A stretch of DNA of 63,950 nt, the filler included, from Dirinaria sp. TL-2023a (taxonomy: Eukaryota): the NCBI GenBank assembly GCA_051941275.1. It is 4 parts of 4 records of this genome, joined end to end, with 100 filler letters (N's around TTAATTAATTAA, not from the genome) between each part and the next. Parts side by side here need not be neighbours in the genome. Positions count along the whole stretch, not along the records: positions 32,865 to 49,179 come from JAVEBF010000497.1; 3 more parts are not named here. The stretch is one strand, 5' to 3'. Of the stretch, positions 16,344 through 49,279 are shown piece by piece. The position numbers and the translations under genes are program-made. The notes beneath the pieces are model-generated. The model did not search any database. It was not told where the DNA came from and worked only from the letters and a program-made list of their open reading frames with translations. Within the stretch, counting starts at the first letter, position 1. Each line of letters opens with the position of its first letter.

Positions 16344-16443
16344 NNNNNNNNNNNNNNNNNNNNNNNNNNNNNNNNNNNNNNNNNNNNTTAATTAATTAAN
16401 NNNNNNNNNNNNNNNNNNNNNNNNNNNNNNNNNNNNNNNNNNN
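16344..16443. other. Artificial contig linker (N-run with TTAATTAATTAA)
   Basis: 100-nt N spacer with a six-frame stop cassette, identical to the other two linkers. Confidence 0.98.
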
Positions 16444-37754: not shown

Positions 37755-39266
37755 GGCACGGCTGCTAAACCACTCTATCCAAGGAATCAGCTAACGTGAT
37801 ATCCCAAAAGCTCGTCGCAATTTGCATCATCAGCAGTAGCGGACAATCGAGACAGATGACTATGTACGGCGGCGTGAGATGGTTGAAGGTCGAGCTGAGC
37901 AATTTTAAGGCCAAGCTAAGCGACTTTGTTGTGGGTCTATTCGAAGGGTGATTGTTTTTTGGGTTGCGAAGGCAGCACGAAATGGAATGGGTCACGTGTT
38001 TTGGAGTTTAGTTTCCTAAGTCGAATTTCTCTAGCCAGAGAAGTGCCTCTTATACGAACCATTCTTACAATAGGAGTCTTCAATCCAATTTGCAGTGCGC
38101 TTAAGGGAGCTGAACGCAGGACATGATTCGTCATGCCAATTGCGAGTTATTCAGCTGATTCAATCGTTGAGAAAGTGCATATCTGTGAACAAGTAGTGGC
38201 CTTGCCACGGAACCCAAGTAGGGCCTTAAGGTTAGGTGACAAAGTGCGAGTAAAATGAAAATAAATCAGTCCTGCTTTCGAGGAAAGTATACCAATCCTA
38301 GTTTTGGCACCCGCTACCTACTTACCCTGTACTAGAAGCGTATTTTTGGTGGCTTGGAGCCCAGGGTTCTCAGGGCTTTTTGGAATCGAATGTCGCGGAT
38401 GGTGAAGTGTGTAGTATAGCATGTACAGAGCTAGGGAAGAGCTTTACCACTGCACAATTTAACGCGCTTATAATTCAGTAATTGGAAATTAGAAATATAT
38501 TTGTTCTTTTCTTTCGTGTCATTGTATGATTGATCATCATGCCAATACATTACTGTAATGCACGCTCCTTGGAAAGATGAGAGAGGCTACCTTACATAAC
38601 TGCAGTAAAGTACATTTACATAAGTAAGAGGAGATTATAATGTAAGAAAAGATTCGTTAATCAGTAAACTGCAGCCACAACACCGATCAGGCCTGTATTA
38701 GGGCTACGCTAAAAAAAAGTTTGATAAAGCTGGGCTCAGAGCTGATAAGAAACCTTCTTGGAGTTTTCTCATCAAAATCCGGTACCCGTGATTGAGAAAC
38801 TATGGAAAGGGGTTTAGCGTCCTAAATACGCCTAAGGTATTTGGGTTGGATAAGCTTAGGCTATCTGACTATGCGTCCGTCGAGATAGATTAAGCATGTA
38901 CTCCGTTCCACTTTCAAACAGAATTAGGAAGAGATGTCGATCATGACTATTACTATAGGCTGAGGTTCCTTTTAGGTTAGTCTCAGATGTATATCTGCTA
39001 ACGTTAAGCAGATTTCGGTACGGTCGAGAGTACGAATCCGATTTTGAGAGGGGTGGATGATTGCGGTTTTTGGTGAGCTATTTCTAACGAAGCGTAGGAT
39101 TAATTATACCTCCATGTTGGGAGGATAGATAGAAATGAGGTTGTTTTGTTACTTATTGTAACTGAAGATGCTCTGCTTATTATTCAGATATCTCGAGCGC
39201 ATGAAAGAAGTTTGGGCATAATAGAAGTCAGTGGATTATAGGATCTCAGGCTGTAGGCTATGTCCT

Positions 39267-39600
39267 TCAATCCACGTGCTCGAAGAAACCGTCAAGCCTC
39301 ACATGTCTTGGACTCCAATCTGAATAATATACCACGTATTCACGTGTTAGATCTATGATTCTGCTAATAAGTCGCCATTCCAGGTCTGTAACAAGTGCGT
39401 CATTTGTGTACGACTTTTGACGCAATCTCTTTGTACAGGCGGATATGTGGACGCCTGTAAACTTTCGCCCTCTCATGTCTTGCTCCTGATCTAGATATCT
39501 TTGCTGTCGGCCTTGAGATATGGCAAGAATCTGTCAGCAGCCATATCAACAATACTGCGATCGATCTCGAAGACCTCCCAATAGCCATCTTCGCATGATC
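39267..39600 (-). pseudogene. Possible degraded gene relic
   Basis: Protein-like CEDGYWEVFEIDRSIVDMAADRFLPYLKADSKDI is interrupted by TAG/TGA and an apparent frameshift, within an AT-rich gene-free stretch. Confidence 0.25.
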
Positions 39601-41127
39601 CTCCTTACTACCGGATCGGCGACAAAGCTAACATGTATGCAAAGGCGGCACAGATTGGCATCGACGGACATGCTGTGACGAGATCAAGGCGGCTTGGACA
39701 CCAGGCATGATATTGCCGCGGGTTCGGAGGTGGGTTCCTCGACTCGAACGAGGTCAACAAACACAGACGAGATGCGACGTAAGGGAGAAAGAAAAAAATA
39801 GAAAAACAAATGACGAAGCTTGACCGAACGATGTACAATGAATCAATTAGGTCTGAATCGAAGTATGATGTTAGACCAAACGATAGGGAGCGCAAAGGTA
39901 CGATGATGTACGTTCAAAATCCGGTTCCGAACGAGCGTCGGCCACGAGTAAGCACATGCTTCGAGGCATAGGAGAATTAAGAAACCTCCGAACATCCGGA
40001 CAAAAGCACTCCGCCAAGTATGAAGGTCGGTAACGCTTATCTTGCATTCGCATAGCATGTCATAGGTCATGCTGACTCACTCCAAGAGAAGAATACGTTT
40101 CACTTGAGATATTGCCTGAGCTGACATCTTGGCAGCACCATGCATCAATCGCATGACATCACTTACTCTGTCTCTGAATACAAAGTGTCATATCTTTTAC
40201 TGTGATCGTAACACATGCTCGCGTTACTCCATTTTCGAGCATGTCAAGCAATTCCTGCTCGCACTATTCGCTTTTCGAATATGTCGAACATCTCATGCTC
40301 GCGTGTCAAAATACGCGAGCATATTAATATATATTTATGTTTTGCGTAATTGAAATTTGAATTCTGTTGCTTTATAACATTATCTTTTCTTTATTCTTTT
40401 TTATATCCCTTATCGTTGCTCGAAACTGCAGTTGTAGTCAGTTTGAACAGAGTGATAGCTGTATTATTTTGGTATCCGATGCCTTCCGCTCATCGAAATT
40501 GAGTTGAATAGATAAAGAAAACGTCACGGATAAAGAACCGAAAGTTCGCTTGCGCATGCTTTTTGGCGTTGTTCGCCCAATTATTCGCCTATAGTCGTTT
40601 GGTATCCGTCGTCGGTCTCGGACCCATTCTTCCGCGACTTTGGAATCGAAAGCGTACTTTCTACCTGGTTATGTGGCTTTTTCCCCATCGCATCCAGCCG
40701 CCTACTTGAACCTTGGCTTTCTAAGATCCTTCCTCCATGTCCTGGCCATAGGCCCATAATTGGGAGCAGCAAAACGCTCCAAAAATGAGAAGAGAAGCTG
40801 TGCCAACGGGGTCAAATTGAAAGCTGCAATGACAACCGGAAGCCCAGAGTCACTTACGAAGGTGCCGGACTTGGGAATTTTCCGTCGCTCTCCGCGTACA
40901 TCCATTGCGCGCAAGTTTATTCAACGAAAGAGCAGATTGACCTGCGAAGAGCTTGACAAAGCGTGATTCAGCAGCAATGACTTCAATATCTACATGTAGC
41001 TTGGCCAGCGCACAGAAATCGGTGCGTATGGAACATCACTTGAGGGAAGAGCCAGAAATCGAGATAAGGTCATGGTAAAGATCCTACAAACCTGAGACCC
41101 GATTCAGAACATCTACGCAAGAGATGG

Positions 41128-43713
41128 TCAGGATTTCACCGAGACGCAGTATCCCTCTCCTGCTTGGAACTGCAAGTTGCAATTCTGCCCGGTCGTTCCG
41201 AGGACTGGATTCCACGCATAGAGCTGAGCGGTCGTGATGCCTGGTGTTGGGCATTAGGCAACATGCAATCAAAGGGAAGAACGTTTGACTCACCGTTCGC
41301 TTGAGCAAAAGAGAAACACGTGTCCCCTTGCTTGGCTTCGACTATGCTGTTACAATTACTCGCTATGCCACTCTGTGTAGGTATGGATGACTTCGTGGTG
41401 CTAGTGGCTTTAGACGAAACGCCAACCTGATGCCTGTTTAGTTTCACGGCGAAACGTCGATTAGAAAGCAAAGTGAACGTACGCAGTAGTCATATCCAGC
41501 TTGGAACTGGTTGGAGCAATTGGCGCCATTAGGACCGAGTATCGTATTCCAGCTGTATAACTCGTCGGTGGTGATACCGTTATCTTGCGCAAATTTGAAG
41601 CAATAGTCCCCTGTCTTGGCCTCGACATACTTGTTGCAAGCAGGGCTAATCCCACTTTGAGTGGGAAACGGAAGGCTCGAAGTCGATGAAGGGCCCGCCC
41701 TGCTGGTGCTTGACGACACAGCAGACCCTTGAGTTCCTACGCAGTAGTCATAGCCGGTCCAGAACTCTGTGGTGCAATTATGACCATCCGGGTACCCAAG
41801 GACCGGGTTCCATGTTGTCAGCTGTGCAAGCGTGATATGAAATCTTTGGGACATGTCATAACAAGTATCGCCAGCGGTAGCGTACGCAAAAGCGATACAG
41901 TCCTTCGCAATGCCTATTTGCGTGGGCGCGCTCGTTGTGCTATTTGGTGTAGGACCATCAGGGCCGACAGGACCGTCTGGATTAGTGCCACTACCTTGTC
42001 CGCCTCTCTGTTGGTCGCCAGCATTAGTGTTGGTGCCATTGATAGGCGGTGGAAGAGTATAGCCCCCGCCAGGTGGACTGTAGAACATTTTAAATGAAGT
42101 TGAAGTGTAAGTGGAAAGGACCTTCTTACCCACTACAAACGTACTGGCCCCCAACCAAGTTGTCGCACAGCCCTATGATGTTTGGATTCCATTGAAGGAA
42201 TAGGGCTACCGTTACGTTGAGGTTGCCTGATGACGAGGAGCTTGCAACAGTCGCGCTGTGGTATGTAAGCGAATCAGAGGTAGGAAAAGAGTTGGATGAC
42301 GACGAACCACGTCTGATTCTGACCGATCTGGACCGTGTCACACTTGAGAGGTGCGCAGATTGAACTCGACGAAGAGGAGCAATCATCGTTCCCAGTGGCC
42401 GCTTGAAGGTCTCCGGTGGTCACACCGTACGTTTGCGACAGAGAGTCGCAAGATCCTGCTGAAGCTCTGCGAACTCTTGCATGGCTTGAAGGATCCTCGT
42501 CTGACTCGACACGATCTAGGTTCCGCTCGACAGGCTGGACTTTATCACGCTTCGAGCTGCTCAGTGAAATCACCTGACCACCACAGCCCGAGGTGTTGGG
42601 TTCAGTGGCGTTTGCATTTGGATCTGTGCCAGGCGGAAGAAACGTTGGCGACGGTGCTGCTGGATAGGAAGGCAAAGCTCGAATGAGCGACGGGGGTAAC
42701 GTTACGTTACAAACGTCGGAGATGTCTTGAACTTGGGAAATTAGATCGTCTGATTCATCTGTATCCGGCAGAAAAGGAGAGTTTATGCGCCACCACAGAA
42801 CGCTCAAAAAGCAGTTGCTACAAAGCTGGGAAAAGTCAATGAGTCTTGCGGAGCTCCAAAATGTGCGAATGCTTACAATAGTATCGTTATAGAAGTTGGC
42901 CTGGTACACATTGTGAGGATCATCTAGACATGGAGATAAGGATTTTGAGAACTTACAATGCGAGTTGCAGCATCCGGGTCCGTGCAAAGTGGGTTTCCGG
43001 GGTCTGAACTGCAATCTGGCTCAGCAACATCAACGCCCACCCAGTTTTGTGCCTGCAGGAAACAGAAATCAGACGTGATATTATTCGACTGGACGGATAA
43101 GCCAGTAGAGCTTGTCCCGGGCGGGGATGTCAGTGTCGGTGCGGCTGAGGCTGGCAAAGACGTGGGCTCCGGATCGACCTCTGGAGTCTGATTAAAGGAT
43201 AGCATGATTGGCAGTTGGCTATCAATCGATTAGTAACAAGGCCTTTGCTTCCAGGGGAAAACAGTTATTCACATGTCGGTAAGACAAGCTAGACCAATGC
43301 CGTCGGCATACCGAATAGCTACCGATTCAGTCGGCACCATCTTTCCGTCAATGGTGATAGTTTGGCCGCCACAAGCGTCTTGCACAGTCTGCAGCCAATT
43401 GCTCGAGGACTGGATACAAGAATCTGCGCAGAGCTGGGTCAAGTTGTCCTGCACCCAGTAGTAGAGATCGACCTGACCAGTCATGCGAAAGAGGTCGGGA
43501 TCGCAGGCTACTGTCGTATTCCTGGCCAAACATGAGAGTGTTCCCCAAAGCATGTCAGGGGCCTTTTTCATCGTACATCGCATTGAGACAGTCGGTCGAG
43601 AAGCCCAAGGAAGAGGCTAACTGAGTGGGATCTACCGACGGCCACATATTGAACTGAGCAGCGACAGTCGTCATGATCGAAGTCCAAAAGAACGAGATGC
43701 TGAAGCCTGCCAT
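41128..43713 (-). CDS. Secreted multi-LysM (CBM50) protein, about 9 exons, about 5 LysM domains
   Basis: Signal peptide [20 protein letters not shown], Cys-rich N-terminal region, and LysM-type repeats [97 protein letters not shown]...GYCVSVKS*. Confidence 0.92.
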
Positions 43714-44501
43714 GGCCGTTGAATACACCGATGTATGGCGCACAAGCATGGAACGCATATGAAAAGGATGAATGAAGAGAGGGAGAATACTGAGAAAATC
43801 ACGAGAAAGCGCCAGAGATCAAGCGATATGGCCGTCCCAATTGCAGGCAGAGAGTCCCGAGCGACGAAAGGGTGCTGATGTCTCATGATGCAGTGGGCAA
43901 GGGATGTAAGATGAAGGGCAGGGCTCGAGCTGAACAGCATCAGCCCGGACGCTTTCATCATCGATATCCTCTCTGCGATTCTCGGTGGTTGTTTCCGCAC
44001 CGGGTGGGGGCCCACTTGGGCCAAATGGGCCTGACAGGGCTCAGCGCTTGCCCTGTTAGGCCTAGTCACAGGCTTGGCATGCATCTCGTTCAGCTGCCTG
44101 CACCGTCTTGACTCTTGAGGTACTAATCTTTACCTAGTATTGCAGGGCAGTTGGAACATTCCTCTGCCTTGTAAAATGAGTATCTTCATTTCGATCCTTC
44201 GGAGGAGCGCCCGGGACAACCTGCTGAATGGAGTAATCCACCTGCGGCAGGTGCCTGCCTCAGCAATGATGGCCTGCGCCTCTTCCCTGCTTTCTCTTGA
44301 CACCGCTCCCCCTTACTCTTGCAGAGAGGCTTCTGATTTCTCCATCAGCTCGGACGCTCTTCATGTAACAGTGTGTGGGATACGGTTTTCCCTTTTAGAT
44401 CTCAGATCGGCCCAAGATCATCACCCAACACTCCCGCTCTTCATGTGCAGACCTATTTCCTCTCTTCTCTTTCATCTCCATACTGAGATTGTGCCGTAGA
44501 T

Positions 44502-47500
44502 ATGAGGTCGCAATGGTTTGTCTTCATTGCCGCTATATCGTCGACCGTCCATGCCCGCATTCTACCCCGGCTTAAGACAGCTCACGCTCTCCAGCCTTTA
44601 GACAGAAGGGATCTGCCGATAGGGACATGCACTGCAGATATCCCATGCGAGAACGGAGCCTGTTGCGGCTCGAACAAGCTATGTGGATATTCTCCAACCG
44701 AGTGTGGTAGCGGATGCACCTCCAACTGCAATGCAAAAGCAGAATGTGGGCAATATGGCAACCCAGGCAAGCAGAATTGTCCTCTCAACGTCTGCTGCTC
44801 GCAATTTGGGTCGGTTCAATGCTCAGAATACACTGCGTCCCTGATTGACTCCTATCCGTAGATTCTGCGGTAGTACATCGGATTTCTGCGATAAAGGCTG
44901 TCAAGCCGGGTTTGGAGGGTGTGGTCCGCCTCCTCGGCCATCTTGTGGCGGCTCGAAAGTTGGTCAACGCACTATAGGGTATGTGCAGAAGCTCTTGGAA
45001 GTGGACTGATGCTGACAAGAAACTACAGCTATTATGAGTCTTGGTCTGCCACTCGGACTTGCCAATCCGTCAGTGCAAACTCCGTACAAGAGCTTTGATA
45101 CTTTGCTAATTTGATCCTAGGTCATGCCTGAGGAACTGAATCTTTCTGGCTATACCCATGTCAACTTTGCGTTTGCCTTTTTCGACCCGAGTAATTTCCA
45201 AATTGCGCCCATGGACTCCAACTCGGCGTCGCTGTATAGTCGGTTCACAGCTTTGAAGAACAAGTATAATGGGCTCGAGGCTTGGGTATCCGTGGGCGGG
45301 TGGTCATTCACCGATCCTGGTCCAACGCAGAATGCTTTCACGACCATGGCTTCATCATCCGCCAATAGACAATCTTTCATCACTGGCCTGATCAAGTTTA
45401 TGAACCAGTACGGTTTTGATGGTCAGTTGGCTATAGTAGGCTGGAAGAAAAGCTGTGCCTGATCGCTGACTTACATAGGAATTGATCTCGATTGGGAGTA
45501 TCCTCAAGCAGATGATCGCGGTGGCCAGCCGGCTGATACTGAAAATTACGTGGCTCTTGCGAAGGAGCTAAAAGCTGCCCTTGGCGGCAAAGGTCTATCG
45601 ATGACACTGCCAACAAGCTACTGGTATCTCCAGCATTTTGACGTGAAATCGCTACAGGATTCCGTCGATTGGTTCAATTTCATGACATATGACCTGCATG
45701 GCGTATGGGATGCTCAGTCGCGTTTCCTGGGTCCTTATATTCAACCTCACACCAACCTTACAGAAATCGACTTGGGACTGGATTTGCTTTGGCGGGCTGG
45801 CGTGTCCGCTGACAAGGTCGTTCTCGGACTGGCGTGGGTAGGTAAAAATCCCCGAAACTTGCGATTCCGATGTAGACTGAGTAGCTGGCCTGCAGTACGG
45901 AAGGTCTTTTACCTTGACGTCGCCTTCGTGCAACACACCAAACGGTGTCTGCAAGTTCTCTGGAGGGGCCAACCCAGGACCATGTTCTGGCACTTCCGGA
46001 ATCCTCGACGATCAGGAGATCCAGGATATCATAACCAAGAATAGCCTAACACCAACGTGGGATCATACGGCTGGTGTCAAATGGATAACCTGGGACAGCA
46101 ATCAGTGGGTCTCATTCGATGATGCAGATACTTTCCAGCAGAAGAAAGTAGGTCTTCTCTCCTTTCACCACAAGCCAGCAAGGCTTATTTGATCCGGCAG
46201 GACTTCGCCAGTCAACGCTGTCTCGGCGGACTGATGGTGTGGGCCATAGACCAAAAAGACCAAACCCAGTCAAATGGGCTGGGCTTGGCTCCTAATGTCT
46301 CGCCAGACCAGCAAGCAAACGCGCAGCAAATGTCCAAAGACCAAGCTGCCTCTCTGAGCTGCTATACTACCAATTGTAACGCCAAGTGTAAAAAGGGGAC
46401 AAACAAAGTCGCCGAGGTCTTCGGTCAGCCGGGACAAGTGTCGACCAGGTTCGTTAGCACCATGACTAGAGTTTCTTTGCTCTTTTAACGTTCGTGATCA
46501 GGGATCGTTGTCCGAAAAACCAGTATCGGAGCGTTTGCTGCAATGACGGAACATCCATGGGCCACTGCCAATGGCGTGGATACCGTGGGGTCGGCATGTC
46601 ATGCATCCAAGGCTGTGCTGACGGTAATCGCGCCCCGGCTGAAAAGAAGCAACCAATTTCTAACGTGGGACTAGGCGAAACGGAAATTGTTACTGACACA
46701 AGCGTGCATGATGGAAGTAAGGTACGAGCTTAAGGGAATATCCAGCAGACTGGGGAGACCTCGTGCGCTAATCGGCCTCCTAGGATCGAACTTGCAATGG
46801 CGGTCTCCAGTCCTACTGCTGCGCTGGGTTCTCACCGCCGCCTTCTAAGAGCCAGCTGCAACAAGAAGCTGCGGATGCTGCAAAGGACGCTGCTGAAGCC
46901 GCCGCTGAACAAGCAGCCCTCGACGTGGCTGCGAAGGCTTTTTGTCGAGTCGCCGTTCCTGCCCTTCTTGCGCCTCTGGAGCTTGCGGAAGACCTGATCC
47001 CTATCGTTGGTTAGCTTTTGATATCTGATTTAGGGCTACTCAGATCCTAATCCGGTCCGGTGCTCTAGGAGAGATTCTCGACATTGCTGAGATCGCAGCA
47101 ACGCCCGCCTTAATTGAAGGCTGTGTCAAAGGCATCGAGAAGGAAGGCAAGGCGGAATTCAAAGTCTTTGGCAAAAAGCATACCCTTTCACTGGGTAAGC
47201 TGCAGGATCGGTCGTATTGAGCCTTTGCTGATTCGGACCGCTAGACCAGCGAAGTGATCTTCCAGAGACGCGACCTCCAAAATCAAGCCATGATCCGGAG
47301 CCAACAAGTTCAGCCTGCAACAAACGCGCTCCGAATTGCAAACGTGTGACGAAGGTAACGTCAGCTAGACAACCAATCATCACAGAGCGTAAGTCAGACT
47401 GTGACGTCTCTCAGAGCCTCTCTAATCCAGATATAAATCAGACCCTGGAATCCCCCCAAGAGTTTGTGATGGGGCTCGCTGGCCACAGGCTTGCCAGCAT

Positions 47501-48603
47501 TATTCCTCTGTAATCCACACCGAGCAACCCCTGGTCGACCCTCATGAGCCCGGCTTTAACCCTCTCACCTGTCCTACCAGATCGCGGAACAACTATCGTG
47601 GGGGTGGGAGGGGTGAGCAAATCACCGTTGATTGGACGGATCAGCATGCTGATAGCTGGTAAGTGATGATGCTGCAACGCAGCCAACTTCTGGTGTCATT
47701 GAAAGCAAATTTCAACGCTCAAGCCTTGTGATGCCTTGCAGCATACTTTTCCTGCACTGGAGTTAACTGGAGACCAGGTGGCATGGTTACATGCAACAAC
47801 TCAACGTGGATTGCCAGAGGGACGAATATCCTCCCATCGGCTTCTGGCAAAACCTGGATATCCATGAGCAACGGATCAGAATGAATCCCCAAAATCAGAA
47901 CGGGCCTGCGGGAGCAGCATTGTTCGGCTTGGGGTTCTGCCGTTTCGATGGACAAGGTAACCCACCGGTGTCGACTCGAAATCCCGTGTTCGATCACATG
48001 ATTCATGGACCCGATCGTGACACATCTGTCTTCCTTGCGGATGTGACTACTACACTTTCCACTGTGTCCATCAGATTTGATAGATTTCCCAACGATCCAG
48101 ACTGGGGAATCACTGCAAACCCTTGCTGGCCTTCAACACTGATTGATGATCCCGGGTTCGCTTTATTGACAAGCGACCCCTGGTACTTGGACTACCCACA
48201 GCGACATCAAGGCGCAGCTGCGTACGCGAAAGCACCTCCTGCAGCGCTTACTCAAAACAACCCTCCTAGACCCGGGTATCAAAAACGATTTATTGACGCA
48301 GGAGAGGAAGTCTTGGCATTAATAGCAGCTAACATGACAGAAGAGGCCCTAGAGCGCCTTGCTGGGCAAGGAATCGATATCTGTGTGGATGAAGAATGCG
48401 CCGGCAAGCTTAAAACCGATGGGAGTCCATTTCGAGGCTTTGGCTCGCAATTTAGCTCGTCTATGCCGAAGCCTCATGATGCAGAACCGACAACAGAAGC
48501 CAGCCGTTCACCACCTACTCCGACATCGATGGCACCTGAAGCCGGTAGCGGCATTCAAGTTGCTCTGGAAGCCACAGCAATGCCTTCTGGAGGATCTGAA
48601 TAG
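44502..48603 (+). CDS. Subgroup-C (killer-toxin-like) GH18 chitinase with CBM18/hevein domains and a long C-terminal extension, many exons
   Basis: Signal peptide; hevein motifs CENGACCGSNKLCGYSPTEC and CPLNVCCSQFG|FCG; SVGGW; spliced catalytic motif FDG|IDLDWEYP (DxxDxDxE intact); FMTYDLHGVWD; LGGLMVWAID; then Cys-rich and C-terminal domains. Confidence 0.93.
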
Positions 48604-48815
48604 CATTTGAGTGATTCTTCAGATCAGAAAGACTCTTGTGACCAAAAATGGCAGTACTCAAGCTGGAGGTGGATCTGGGCTGCTTCACTCCTAGTATATT
48701 CAGCCTAGAAAGAGCGCCGTTTACGGTCCTCGATGGGTTCGGGGTTCTGGATAGCTGGCTGGATCATTTGCCGCAGATAGCCTACATTACCTCCCAGTTA
48801 TTAGCGAGACGGCTG

Positions 48816-49179
48816 TCAGTGCTTTTGCTTTAAGAACTCTCCAAGTTGCGTGCTGCATCTCTCCCTGCTAAAACCGGGACCTGGCCAGCCATTGTTGACA
48901 TAAATCTCGTAAACAATCTGTGTCAATGACACTAAAGTCAGCAATTGAAGCTTCGCCGCGGTCAATGACAAAGCAGTAAAACTTGCCCTGGTCTTCTCAG
49001 GAAGGCTGCCTATCTCCAGTCCCAAGGGACCACGAGCTGCAGACTCTGATTGCACCGCCAATTCTGCCGCTTCGGAAGCTTCTCCCGCATGGCTTTCTCC
49101 CTTCTCCAACGCCAGTCGCATCTGCTCCGCTGCCTCGTTCCCATACGCGTCAGTTATCAGCTCCGTCAGCTCCGTCTCT
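48816..49179 (-). CDS. 3' fragment of a hypothetical protein (5' part beyond the contig end)
   Basis: Frame open from the contig end: ETELTELITDAYGNEAAEQMRLALE...IYVNNGWPGPGFSRERCSTQLGEFLKQKH*. Confidence 0.55.
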
Positions 49180-49279
49180 NNNNNNNNNNNNNNNNNNNNN
49201 NNNNNNNNNNNNNNNNNNNNNNNTTAATTAATTAANNNNNNNNNNNNNNNNNNNNNNNNNNNNNNNNNNNNNNNNNNNN
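49180..49279. other. Artificial contig linker
   Basis: 100-nt N spacer with TTAATTAATTAA. Confidence 0.98.

Follow-up and report, generated by a model that had tools for sequence, protein, structure and literature searches.

A chitinase gene of a Dirinaria lichen fungus with a predicted C-terminal domain of the NucA/NucB nuclease type

Within a stretch of 63,950 nucleotides from Dirinaria sp. TL-2023a (GenBank assembly GCA_051941275.1), referred to below as the window, a whole chitinase gene is present on the plus strand at 44502..48603, and the C-terminal domain of its product resembles the bacterial NucA/NucB nucleases in predicted fold and in active-site residues. The reading that we propose, for which we see the chances as evenly divided, is that the gene encodes a secreted subgroup-C GH18 chitinase of ∼120 kDa carrying an enlarged and divergent NucA/NucB (His-Me finger) domain as a delivered effector. 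The window consists of several contigs joined end to end, the joins being marked by runs of N around TTAATTAATTAA at 16344-16443, 32765-32864 and 49180-49279. Since the gene is located on the piece 32865-49179, arguments from its neighbourhood end at these two positions.

A predicted NucB-like domain at the C-terminus

A preliminary description of the window, in which the similarity was judged by eye, had ascribed a NucA/NucB-like nuclease domain to this chitinase on the basis of two peptides. Both are indeed encoded on the plus strand: VCDGARWPQACQHYSSVI lies in exon 47442-47658, and removal of the GT-AG intron 47659-47777 yields ...WTDQHADSW|WHGYMQQLNVDCQRDEYPPIGFWQNLDIHEQRIRMNPQNQNGPAGAALF..., the splice that had been assumed and that is also used in the deposited protein for the locus. 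This protein, P0001 (950 amino acids; 100% identical), stems from a metagenome-assembled genome record of the Dirinaria lichen fungus, and its residue numbering is used here. The span 47328-48288 corresponds to about residues 586-846 and encloses the entire C-terminal domain (residues 604-835), a folded unit of ∼230 amino acids that is followed by a tail of ∼115 residues. The NucB-like core of the domain (residues 604-777) is encoded at 47388..48081 (+) and is interrupted by the introns 47389-47441 and 47659-47777.

When single sequences were searched against Pfam, neither P0001 nor the isolated domain matched the NucA/NucB family PF14040, exon pieces and a 244-amino-acid stretch included, and a phmmer search of the PDB with the single domain sequence returned no usable match, only a cyclin at E 1.5. 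We also used an alignment of 89 relatives, chosen as representatives with 50% identity or less to each other. Eight of these 89 gave sub-threshold matches to PF14040 (E<=1), always at the same motif; P0003, P0050, P0051, P0083 and P0084 are among them, and the best match was that of P0084 (E 9e-4; 20.2 bits, with a gathering threshold of 23.8). Comparison of the 89-sequence profile with 177,635 PDB sequences gave NucB (5OMT/6EJS) as the sole match, with E 2.1e-4 and 24 bits over 41 profile positions, and the alignment, CqrDEyPP...liRllpgseNggAG, comprised the catalytic motif only. NucB was again the sole match of a 54-sequence profile, at E 0.16, and was absent from the search with a 14-sequence profile, which returned only a spurious FAM166A at E 0.12. 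In addition, the three best feature matches in the ESM Atlas were PF14040 clusters (score 0.87), which we use as a lead only.

An AlphaFold2 (AF2) model of the domain based on the 89 sequences reached a predicted local distance difference test score (pLDDT) of 86.4 and a predicted template modelling score (pTM) of 0.83. The quality of the model depends on alignment depth, as AlphaFold with 14 sequences gave an unusable model (pLDDT 44.7). In the AF2 model a strand on CQRDEY (85-90), a strand on RIRMNP and a helix from QNQNGPAG (111-122) form a beta-beta-alpha unit. A structural search against NucB had been put forward in the preliminary description as one check on its claim, and the outcome pointed to NucB and nothing else. 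Foldseek placed the three NucB entries at ranks 1-3 (E 0.1-0.3), with template modelling (TM) scores of 0.42-0.44 normalised to NucB length. In a Foldseek-independent structure search with VIA-align, the sole chain with Z>=2 among 48,161 was NucB, at a Z of 6.5 (below 8, where the tool advises caution) and a root-mean-square deviation (rmsd) of 3.3 Å over 104/109 residues. A second look gave the three NucB entries at Z 7.5, 7.0 and 6.5 and nothing else among 251 chains. These superpositions relate model residues 1-174 to NucB residues 34-142, with an rmsd of 3.3-3.4 Å over 103-104 of 109-110 residues. A search of a viral structure library with the domain model found nothing, and the HNH DNases of colicins gave no sequence or structural match in the PDB profile, Foldseek or VIA searches. 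The fold of NucB consists of a five-strand sheet with helices around a beta-beta-alpha-metal finger. As the modest scores all point to one family, and as the match covers essentially all of NucB, we take the kinship as real: judged by its model, the C-terminal region very probably has a NucA/NucB-type beta-beta-alpha-metal fold. The claim made by eye thus stands, with a sequence similarity that is beyond chance but weak.

The residues on which NucB depends are found at the corresponding positions of the domain. In the available excerpts of the NucB structure paper, which describes the founding structure of its His-Me subgroup, Asp93 and Glu94 (of the motif DRDE) and Asn117 (of DNRG) are essential, and His53 positions Asp93 (PMC5758888). 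The sequence CQRDEYP (47812..47832, +), modelled as the first strand of the beta-beta-alpha motif, aligns with FDRDEWP of NucB, and its D (47821-47823) and E (47824-47826) align with Asp93 and Glu94; the discussion in the same paper puts DRDE on 'the second beta-strand' of the sub-structure (PMC5758888). Asn717 (47899..47901, +), at the start of the motif helix, is aligned with the metal ligand Asn117 (seNggAG / SDNRGAG). Among the 89 relatives, the Asp is kept in 88, the Glu in 89 and the Asn in 88, as is R710 on the second strand (88/89). A candidate equivalent of His53 is H623 in the first helix (80/89), at the position expected from the alignment ranges only, with H672 (87/89) as an alternative candidate. 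Six cysteines are kept in 87-89 of the 89 sequences. Other motif positions are less constant. DRDE of NucB reads QRDE here, its first position being variable (Q 43, E 20, D 18 of 89), and DNRG reads QNGP, the D, R and G of this motif being only partly kept across the relatives. In long chitinases of 1399-1568 amino acids that were found by their names, from Trichoderma, Fusarium, Metarhizium, Colletotrichum, Trichophyton and others, Asp-Glu is retained in 28 of 29 and Asn in all 29.

Beyond the range aligned with NucB the domain continues with a C-terminal extension, NPCWPSTLIDDPGFALLTSDPWY (48082..48255, +), which is modelled with a pLDDT of about 90-96. Its residues N790, G802 and D809 are invariant in 89/89 relatives and have no counterpart in NucB, and neither has a loop insertion in the domain. 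Retention of the catalytic positions together with drift elsewhere is what would be predicted for an active enzyme. On alignment and model, we consider it somewhat probable that the domain is an active metal-dependent nuclease.

Gene model and architecture of the protein

The chitinase gene runs from an ATG at 44502 to a stop codon at 48601-48603 and was modelled with 14 exons and 13 GT-AG introns of 50-119 nt, giving a coding sequence of 3333 nt for 1110 amino acids without an internal stop. This model, for which tblastn provided an exon map, aligns end to end with the Xylaria chitinase P0007, at 66.8% identity over 1088 columns. A search of sequencing runs listed no RNA run and a single DNA run, with a share of 0.06. 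P0001 corresponds to model residues 157-1110; it begins at 45124, which is 156 residues too late, and for this reason lacks the signal peptide and the chitin-binding region. Furthermore, P0001 is mis-spliced at one junction (45838-45895), where the four residues WYGR are dropped.

From the N- to the C-terminus, a signal peptide, CBM18 and GH18 are followed by a Cys-rich region, a hydrophobic segment and a dibasic linker, and then by the NucB-like domain and the tail. The probable signal peptide, MRSQWFVFIAAISSTVHA (44502..44555, +), was read from the hydrophobic N-terminus of the translation. The CBM18/hevein-like chitin-binding region (PF00187; 44598..44978, +) is interrupted by the intron 44810-44861. 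The exon-1 translation scores just under the PF00187 cut-off (E 1.3e-5; 25.8 bits, with a cut-off of 27.8), and the region is 84% identical to its counterpart in P0007, where PF00187 reaches 40.4 bits. The GH18 domain (45121..46254, +, with introns) matches PF00704 at E 3.2e-62 on P0001 residues 5-317 and contains the catalytic motif DGIDLDWE (DxxDxDxE). The protein is thus a GH18 chitinase, as had been stated. It was also described as of the subgroup-C type, with which both the combination of GH18 and CBM18 and an adjoining LysM-protein gene agree; we base this assignment on the domain architecture and on the nearest relatives that bear a name. LysM (CBM50) modules (PF01476), by which subgroup C-II is defined, were found neither in P0001 nor in exon 1, and exons 2-3 (52 amino acids) align to the CBM18/linker part of P0007. 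Because no LysM module was found, the layout is C-I-like and not C-II.

After GH18, a Cys-rich stretch leads to an Ala-rich, hydrophobic helical segment, AAKAFCRVAVPALLAPLELAEDLIPIVGEILDIAEIAATPALI (46907..47118, +), which spans the intron 47010-47068. This segment is the non-signal hydrophobic maximum of the protein (19-residue Kyte-Doolittle maximum of 1.49). In P0007, P0009, P0207 and P0221 the hydrophobic maximum (1.6-1.97) occupies the same position, between GH18 and the C-terminal domain, so that it was found there in 5/5 proteins checked. The segment may serve in membrane insertion. A membrane-anchored chitinase was considered and rejected, the segment being borderline and placed between two secreted Cys-rich parts. 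Likewise, an Hce2 domain was rejected, as Pfam gave no Hce2 match in P0001.

Between the hydrophobic segment and the nuclease-like domain, the linker loop C-NKR-APN-C-KR (47316..47345, +) contains two dibasic, Kex2-type sites bracketed by cysteines, a pattern that is kept in the close clade. We compared the 90 residues preceding the domain with windows taken elsewhere upstream in the same proteins (91 linker and 307 control windows). Dibasic [KR]R sites were present in 63/91 linker windows and in 95/307 control windows, and KR sites in 52/91 and 58/307, respectively. Dibasic sites flanked on either side by a Cys at a distance of up to 12-14 residues were found in 30/91 linker windows vs 13/307 control windows. 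The Fisher p values near 1e-10 for these enrichments overstate independence, as the sequences are related. The linker may be cleaved at its dibasic sites, and a nicked loop closed by a disulphide after a hydrophobic segment would, by analogy, correspond to the classic two-chain toxin layout. In many other members of the family, though not in the window's protein, a second conserved module (AAQ.A.Y.YP..EDP.GAF.WWLSPCGGTDLVPD.IKK.F) is located between the hydrophobic segment and the domain. Members with this WWLSPCGGTDLVPD-containing module include P0136, P0138, P0150, P0152 and P0158, as well as the locus segment L026:3273-3690.

The gene ends with a tail module (48256..48603, +) composed of an N-x-T sequon, a ...C....C..E motif and a low-complexity part up to the stop codon. 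Relatives have homologous tails, in which an N-S/M-T sequon is followed by the motif GNSTRKATDEEL..G..RC..DC..E, and open reading frames (ORFs) of the tail family were found in 18 related loci (for example, the downstream ORFs of L001, L002 and L005). The tail is missing from the long LysM-type chitinases, whose end directly follows the domain. The last Cys of the window's protein is ∼75 residues from the end. Of the 29 long relatives, only P0222, in an aberrant tail (14 from the end), has a Cys within the last 24 residues; P0215 has a Cys 25 residues from its end.

Distribution of the domain and neighbouring genes

A profile search of 1.84 billion representatives returned 725 proteins with E<=1e-3, of which 499 reached E<=1e-10; details were taken from the best 150 of the 725, and many matches are fragments or exon-sized metagenome ORFs. 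The domain ends hundreds of proteins of Pezizomycotina and is without Pfam annotation, and the window's gene is an ordinary member of this family. Among carriers whose N-terminal part can be recognised, GH18 with CBM18 predominates, with or without LysM. Indeed, the classical LysM+CBM18+GH18 chitinases of Trichoderma, Fusarium, Metarhizium and Trichophyton end in the same domain (E 1e-65 to 1e-100). The domain is also fused to the GH55-like P0225, named glucan 1,3-beta-glucosidase, and to a DUF7029+DUF7223 pair (P0179 and loci L013/15, L024 and L025), and it is carried by several signal-peptide proteins with unrecognised N-termini. The DUF7029/DUF7223 fusions hint that these DUFs are also wall-active or targeting modules. 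P0173 (866 amino acids) has the domain at 149-391, followed by a subtilase (Peptidase_S8), which represents a separate architecture or else two genes fused in the prediction.

In the preliminary description the protein had been likened to a polymorphic toxin, and an exchange of C-terminal domains among homologous chitinases had been named as a check. The likeness fits only loosely: in the bacterial pattern one delivery part carries swapped C-terminal toxins, whereas here the domain is constant and the N-terminal wall hydrolases vary. As to the exchange, the opposite was seen, with one C-terminal domain on several N-terminal parts.

Divergently oriented from the chitinase, a gene of several exons at 41139..43713 (-) encodes a secreted LysM-domain protein, with a PF01476 match of E 3.8e-10 on 41447-42172. 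We compared 37 related loci, of which 30 are distinct. A LysM neighbour was present upstream of the chitinase in 9 of them, all metagenome loci and 7 distinct (L002, L005/6, L008, L009/10, L019, L027 and L029), and pairing with a LysM gene is known for subgroup-C chitinases (PMC4392113). Between the LysM gene and the chitinase we saw no separate gamma-toxin gene; the contig ends 575 bp downstream of the chitinase, and gamma toxins are highly divergent. On the same contig, 10 kb upstream, an ORF fragment at 33580-33957 (-) matches the UstYa mycotoxin-biosynthesis family PF11807 (E 2.1e-19).

A second neighbour family consists of proteins of ∼280-300 amino acids without a signal peptide, whose genes are located no more than 10 kb from the domain in 18/30 distinct loci. 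Examples are L026:4863-5696 (+), L012:2817-3719 (+) and L027:161-1054 (-), with 15 further loci, and positions and orientations vary among loci. These proteins share the motifs FY..L...YL....I..PP..GWP, LL.HLPY, LLLDT..G and IYREHGWP; they have no Pfam match, and their look-alikes in the Atlas were only 'hypothetical' proteins of Ascomycota. The 12 loci without this family comprise six contigs under 4.5 kb, three loci of the DUF7029 type, L033 (a 5.8-kb contig with a partial domain match), and L017 and L019, which are GH18 loci with flanking sequence. In the window, a convergent neighbour gene truncated at the contig border is represented by its 3′ part at 48819..49179 (-), which has no Pfam match. 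Of 988 window ORFs, this one scored best against a hidden Markov model of the neighbour family, although at a non-significant E of 0.16 and at the C-terminal IYREHGWP, so that judged from its sequence it is possibly a member. Since a producer of such a toxic nuclease would have to be protected by an immunity protein, we regard the neighbour family as a candidate for such an immunity or partner protein. A complex prediction for the domain L026:3690-4433 with L026:4863-5696 scored 0.00 when run without alignments, which speaks neither for nor against binding.

Competing explanations and known systems

In the scheme that we propose, the CBM18/GH18 part would bind and open the chitin wall of another fungus. 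A Kex2-type cut in the Cys-bracketed linker would then release the C-terminal piece, which would still be held by a disulphide, the hydrophobic segment could help this piece to reach the target membrane, and the nuclease would attack the nucleic acids of the other fungus. Several features fit a delivered effector, namely the hydrophobic maximum, the enrichment of dibasic sites, the other wall-active or secreted N-termini, the neighbour protein without a signal peptide, and a precedent in virus-like elements (VLEs) of yeast. That the domain is a delivered toxin is suggested by analogy, and we put it forward tentatively, as a possibility less well founded than nuclease activity itself. The preliminary description, which read the protein as a single-chain toxin that binds and degrades a competitor's wall and delivers a DNase, is supported in part, namely for the predicted fold, the retained catalytic residues and the type of chitinase.

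A number of observations weigh against the proposed scheme. At the level of sequence, no member among the 89 relatives reaches the Pfam threshold of PF14040, and the match to NucB spans only ∼35-41 residues and varies with the alignment, from E 0.16 with 54 sequences to none with 14. The first D of DRDE and the D and R of DNRG are not conserved. At the level of structure, Foldseek gave NucB an E of only 0.1-0.3 and no match at E<=1e-3, and the VIA tool cautions that a Z under 8, as obtained here, may reflect a common arrangement. The domain is, at ∼230 amino acids, twice the size of NucB and is fused to larger proteins, and the hydrophobic segment of the window's own protein is borderline (1.49). 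An immunity gene was not demonstrated in the window, where the contig ends 575 bp after the chitinase gene. As for related systems, the excerpts available of the report on yeast killer plasmids state that no DNase activity was found for any plasmid protein and that those plasmids/VLEs gave no biocontrol effect (PMC8472843). The zymocin alpha/beta chitinase is, in the part available of the study by Heneghan et al., the carrier of a separate gamma toxin (10.1101/2024.10.25.620242), and if the zymocin beta subunit is a homologue of the domain, a carrier role is equally likely.

The strongest alternative, which we nevertheless hold to be fairly unlikely, is that the domain is an active nuclease acting outside the cell, as a wall-tethered DNase that degrades the DNA of lysed hyphae or a matrix of extracellular DNA (eDNA), for nutrition or clearing. 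The sole characterised relatives, NucB and NucA, are described in the NucB paper excerpts as secreted DNases, which break down the eDNA of biofilms outside the cell (PMC5758888). Conservation of the catalytic residues would be expected here as well, fusion to several polysaccharide hydrolases would suit a co-operating degradative module, and neither uptake machinery nor an immunity gene has been demonstrated. This explanation, however, leaves the hydrophobic segment, the enrichment of Cys-bracketed dibasic sites and the cytoplasmic-type neighbour gene without a role. In addition, the Discussion of Heneghan et al. ties subgroup-C chitinases to antagonism between fungi (10.1101/2024.10.25.620242).

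A nuclease-derived module that has lost enzymatic function, and that serves like a beta subunit as carrier or translocator of a separate small toxin or as a structural or binding domain, appears to us quite improbable. It would accord with zymocin, whose toxic principle is, according to the same text, the separate gamma subunit, and as the contig continues for only 575 bp beyond the gene, a toxin gene next to it would be out of view. However, the near-invariance of Asp-Glu and Asn (88-89 of 89 at <=50% identity) argues for a retained active site, and the near-terminal Cys by which gamma is attached is lacking in the window's protein, where the last Cys is ∼75 residues from the end, and in the long relatives. 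Finally, a convergent or chance resemblance to NucB of a domain from an unrelated fold class is very improbable: all scores are modest (E 2.1e-4 and 0.16 for the profiles, E 0.1 for Foldseek and Z 6.5-7.5 for VIA-align) and the family is not included in Pfam, but the profile, two structure aligners, language-model features and recurrent sub-threshold PF14040 matches point to one family alone, 104/109 NucB residues are covered, and the aligned residues are the proven catalytic ones of NucB (PMC5758888, available excerpts).

A delivered nuclease would matter because subgroup-C chitinases are expanded in mycoparasites, and the toxic principle is unexplained for many members without a nearby gamma-toxin gene. 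The C-terminal nuclease could then account for an antifungal effect and recast the zymocin beta subunit, and the family would define a Pfam-invisible branch of NucA/NucB with 725 representatives at E<=1e-3. If the domain were inactive, the finding would shrink to a note on domain annotation. According to a review from 2015, no subgroup-C chitinase had been characterised biochemically (PMC4392113). In its widest form, the idea would make subgroup-C chitinases and their relatives single-chain, colicin-like antifungal toxins, with the wall hydrolase for targeting, the hydrophobic segment for translocation and a Kex2-released NucB-type nuclease as the toxic part. The ∼280-amino-acid protein encoded nearby in most related loci would then be their immunity protein and the zymocin beta subunit a descendant of the nuclease; we consider this unlikely.

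Among known proteins, Bacillus NucB/NucA (PF14040; PDB 5OMT, 6EJS, 9FJ7) share with the domain the beta-beta-alpha-metal core and the preceding helix with its conserved His. They are likewise secreted and contain disulphides, and NucB can be superposed over its full length of 109 residues on residues 1-174 of the model. The domain differs in having only about 12-15% identity to NucB, short of the Pfam threshold, and in being twice the size, with a 28-60 insertion and a C-terminal extension of ∼60 residues with invariant N, G and D. It also has six conserved Cys and is fused to a chitinase, whereas NucB is a small (∼110 amino acids) stand-alone enzyme, the family being marked by non-specific DNase activity that depends on Mg2+/Mn2+.

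Subgroup-C chitinases were named killer-toxin-like for their resemblance to the zymocin alpha/beta precursor. The window's protein is like these chitinases and the precursor in being a large secreted GH18 protein with an N-terminal CBM18 and an adjoining LysM-protein gene, and differs from them in that it is without LysM modules (C-I-like) and without a near-terminal Cys. In the zymocin-type chitinases, this Cys holds the separate gamma toxin by a disulphide, as set out in the part available of Heneghan et al., who also report genes for gamma toxin and immunity beside many C-II chitinases, several C-II members being without them (10.1101/2024.10.25.620242). Their cartoons contain only signal peptide, carbohydrate-binding modules, GH18 and a transmembrane region, and papers on subgroup-C and zymocin-type chitinases describe the C-terminal part, in the excerpts available, as a transmembrane or beta-subunit region and not as a nuclease. 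The fusions of Hce2 to chitinases (class III Hce2; ChiC2-2, TVC3, GH18-6/8) are also subgroup-C chitinases with an extra putative effector domain, which is, however, Hce2/Ecp2-like and not a nuclease. Nuclease colicins combine a receptor-binding part, a translocation part and a C-terminal beta-beta-alpha-metal DNase with an adjacent immunity gene. The overall scheme proposed here would be functionally analogous to that of nuclease colicins and pyocins such as colicin E9; the likeness is one of functional layout on paper, and the window's protein differs in being eukaryotic and secretory.

A counterpart with this layout is a protein encoded on a killer plasmid of Debaryomyces hansenii. In the available text of Polomska et al. 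(2021), it is described as having ChtBD1, GH18 and a single transmembrane region, after which two KEX2 sites precede a 'fragment of DNase NucA/NucB', and it was proposed to be a killer DNase, with small proteins inside the cell for protection (PMC8472843). By this published description, pDH5A ORF2p and the window's protein share signal peptide, chitin-binding region, GH18, hydrophobic or transmembrane region, KEX2 sites and C-terminal NucA/NucB part (PMC8472843). The gene for ORF2p sits on a linear plasmid in the cytoplasm of a budding yeast; it is intronless, and its product includes a LysM fragment, whereas the window's gene is nuclear, has 13 introns and no LysM, and encodes an extra tail of ∼115 residues. 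Our literature searches found PMC8472843 as the sole relevant report linking chitinases and a NucB-type nuclease, and a 2026 review of yeast toxin-immunity pairs mentions NucA or DNase 0 times. The architecture has thus already been proposed computationally for yeast plasmids, and the window's gene is not new in kind. What the present analysis adds to PMC8472843 is fold-level evidence, family-wide conservation of the active site, alternative hydrolase partners and a conserved neighbour gene.

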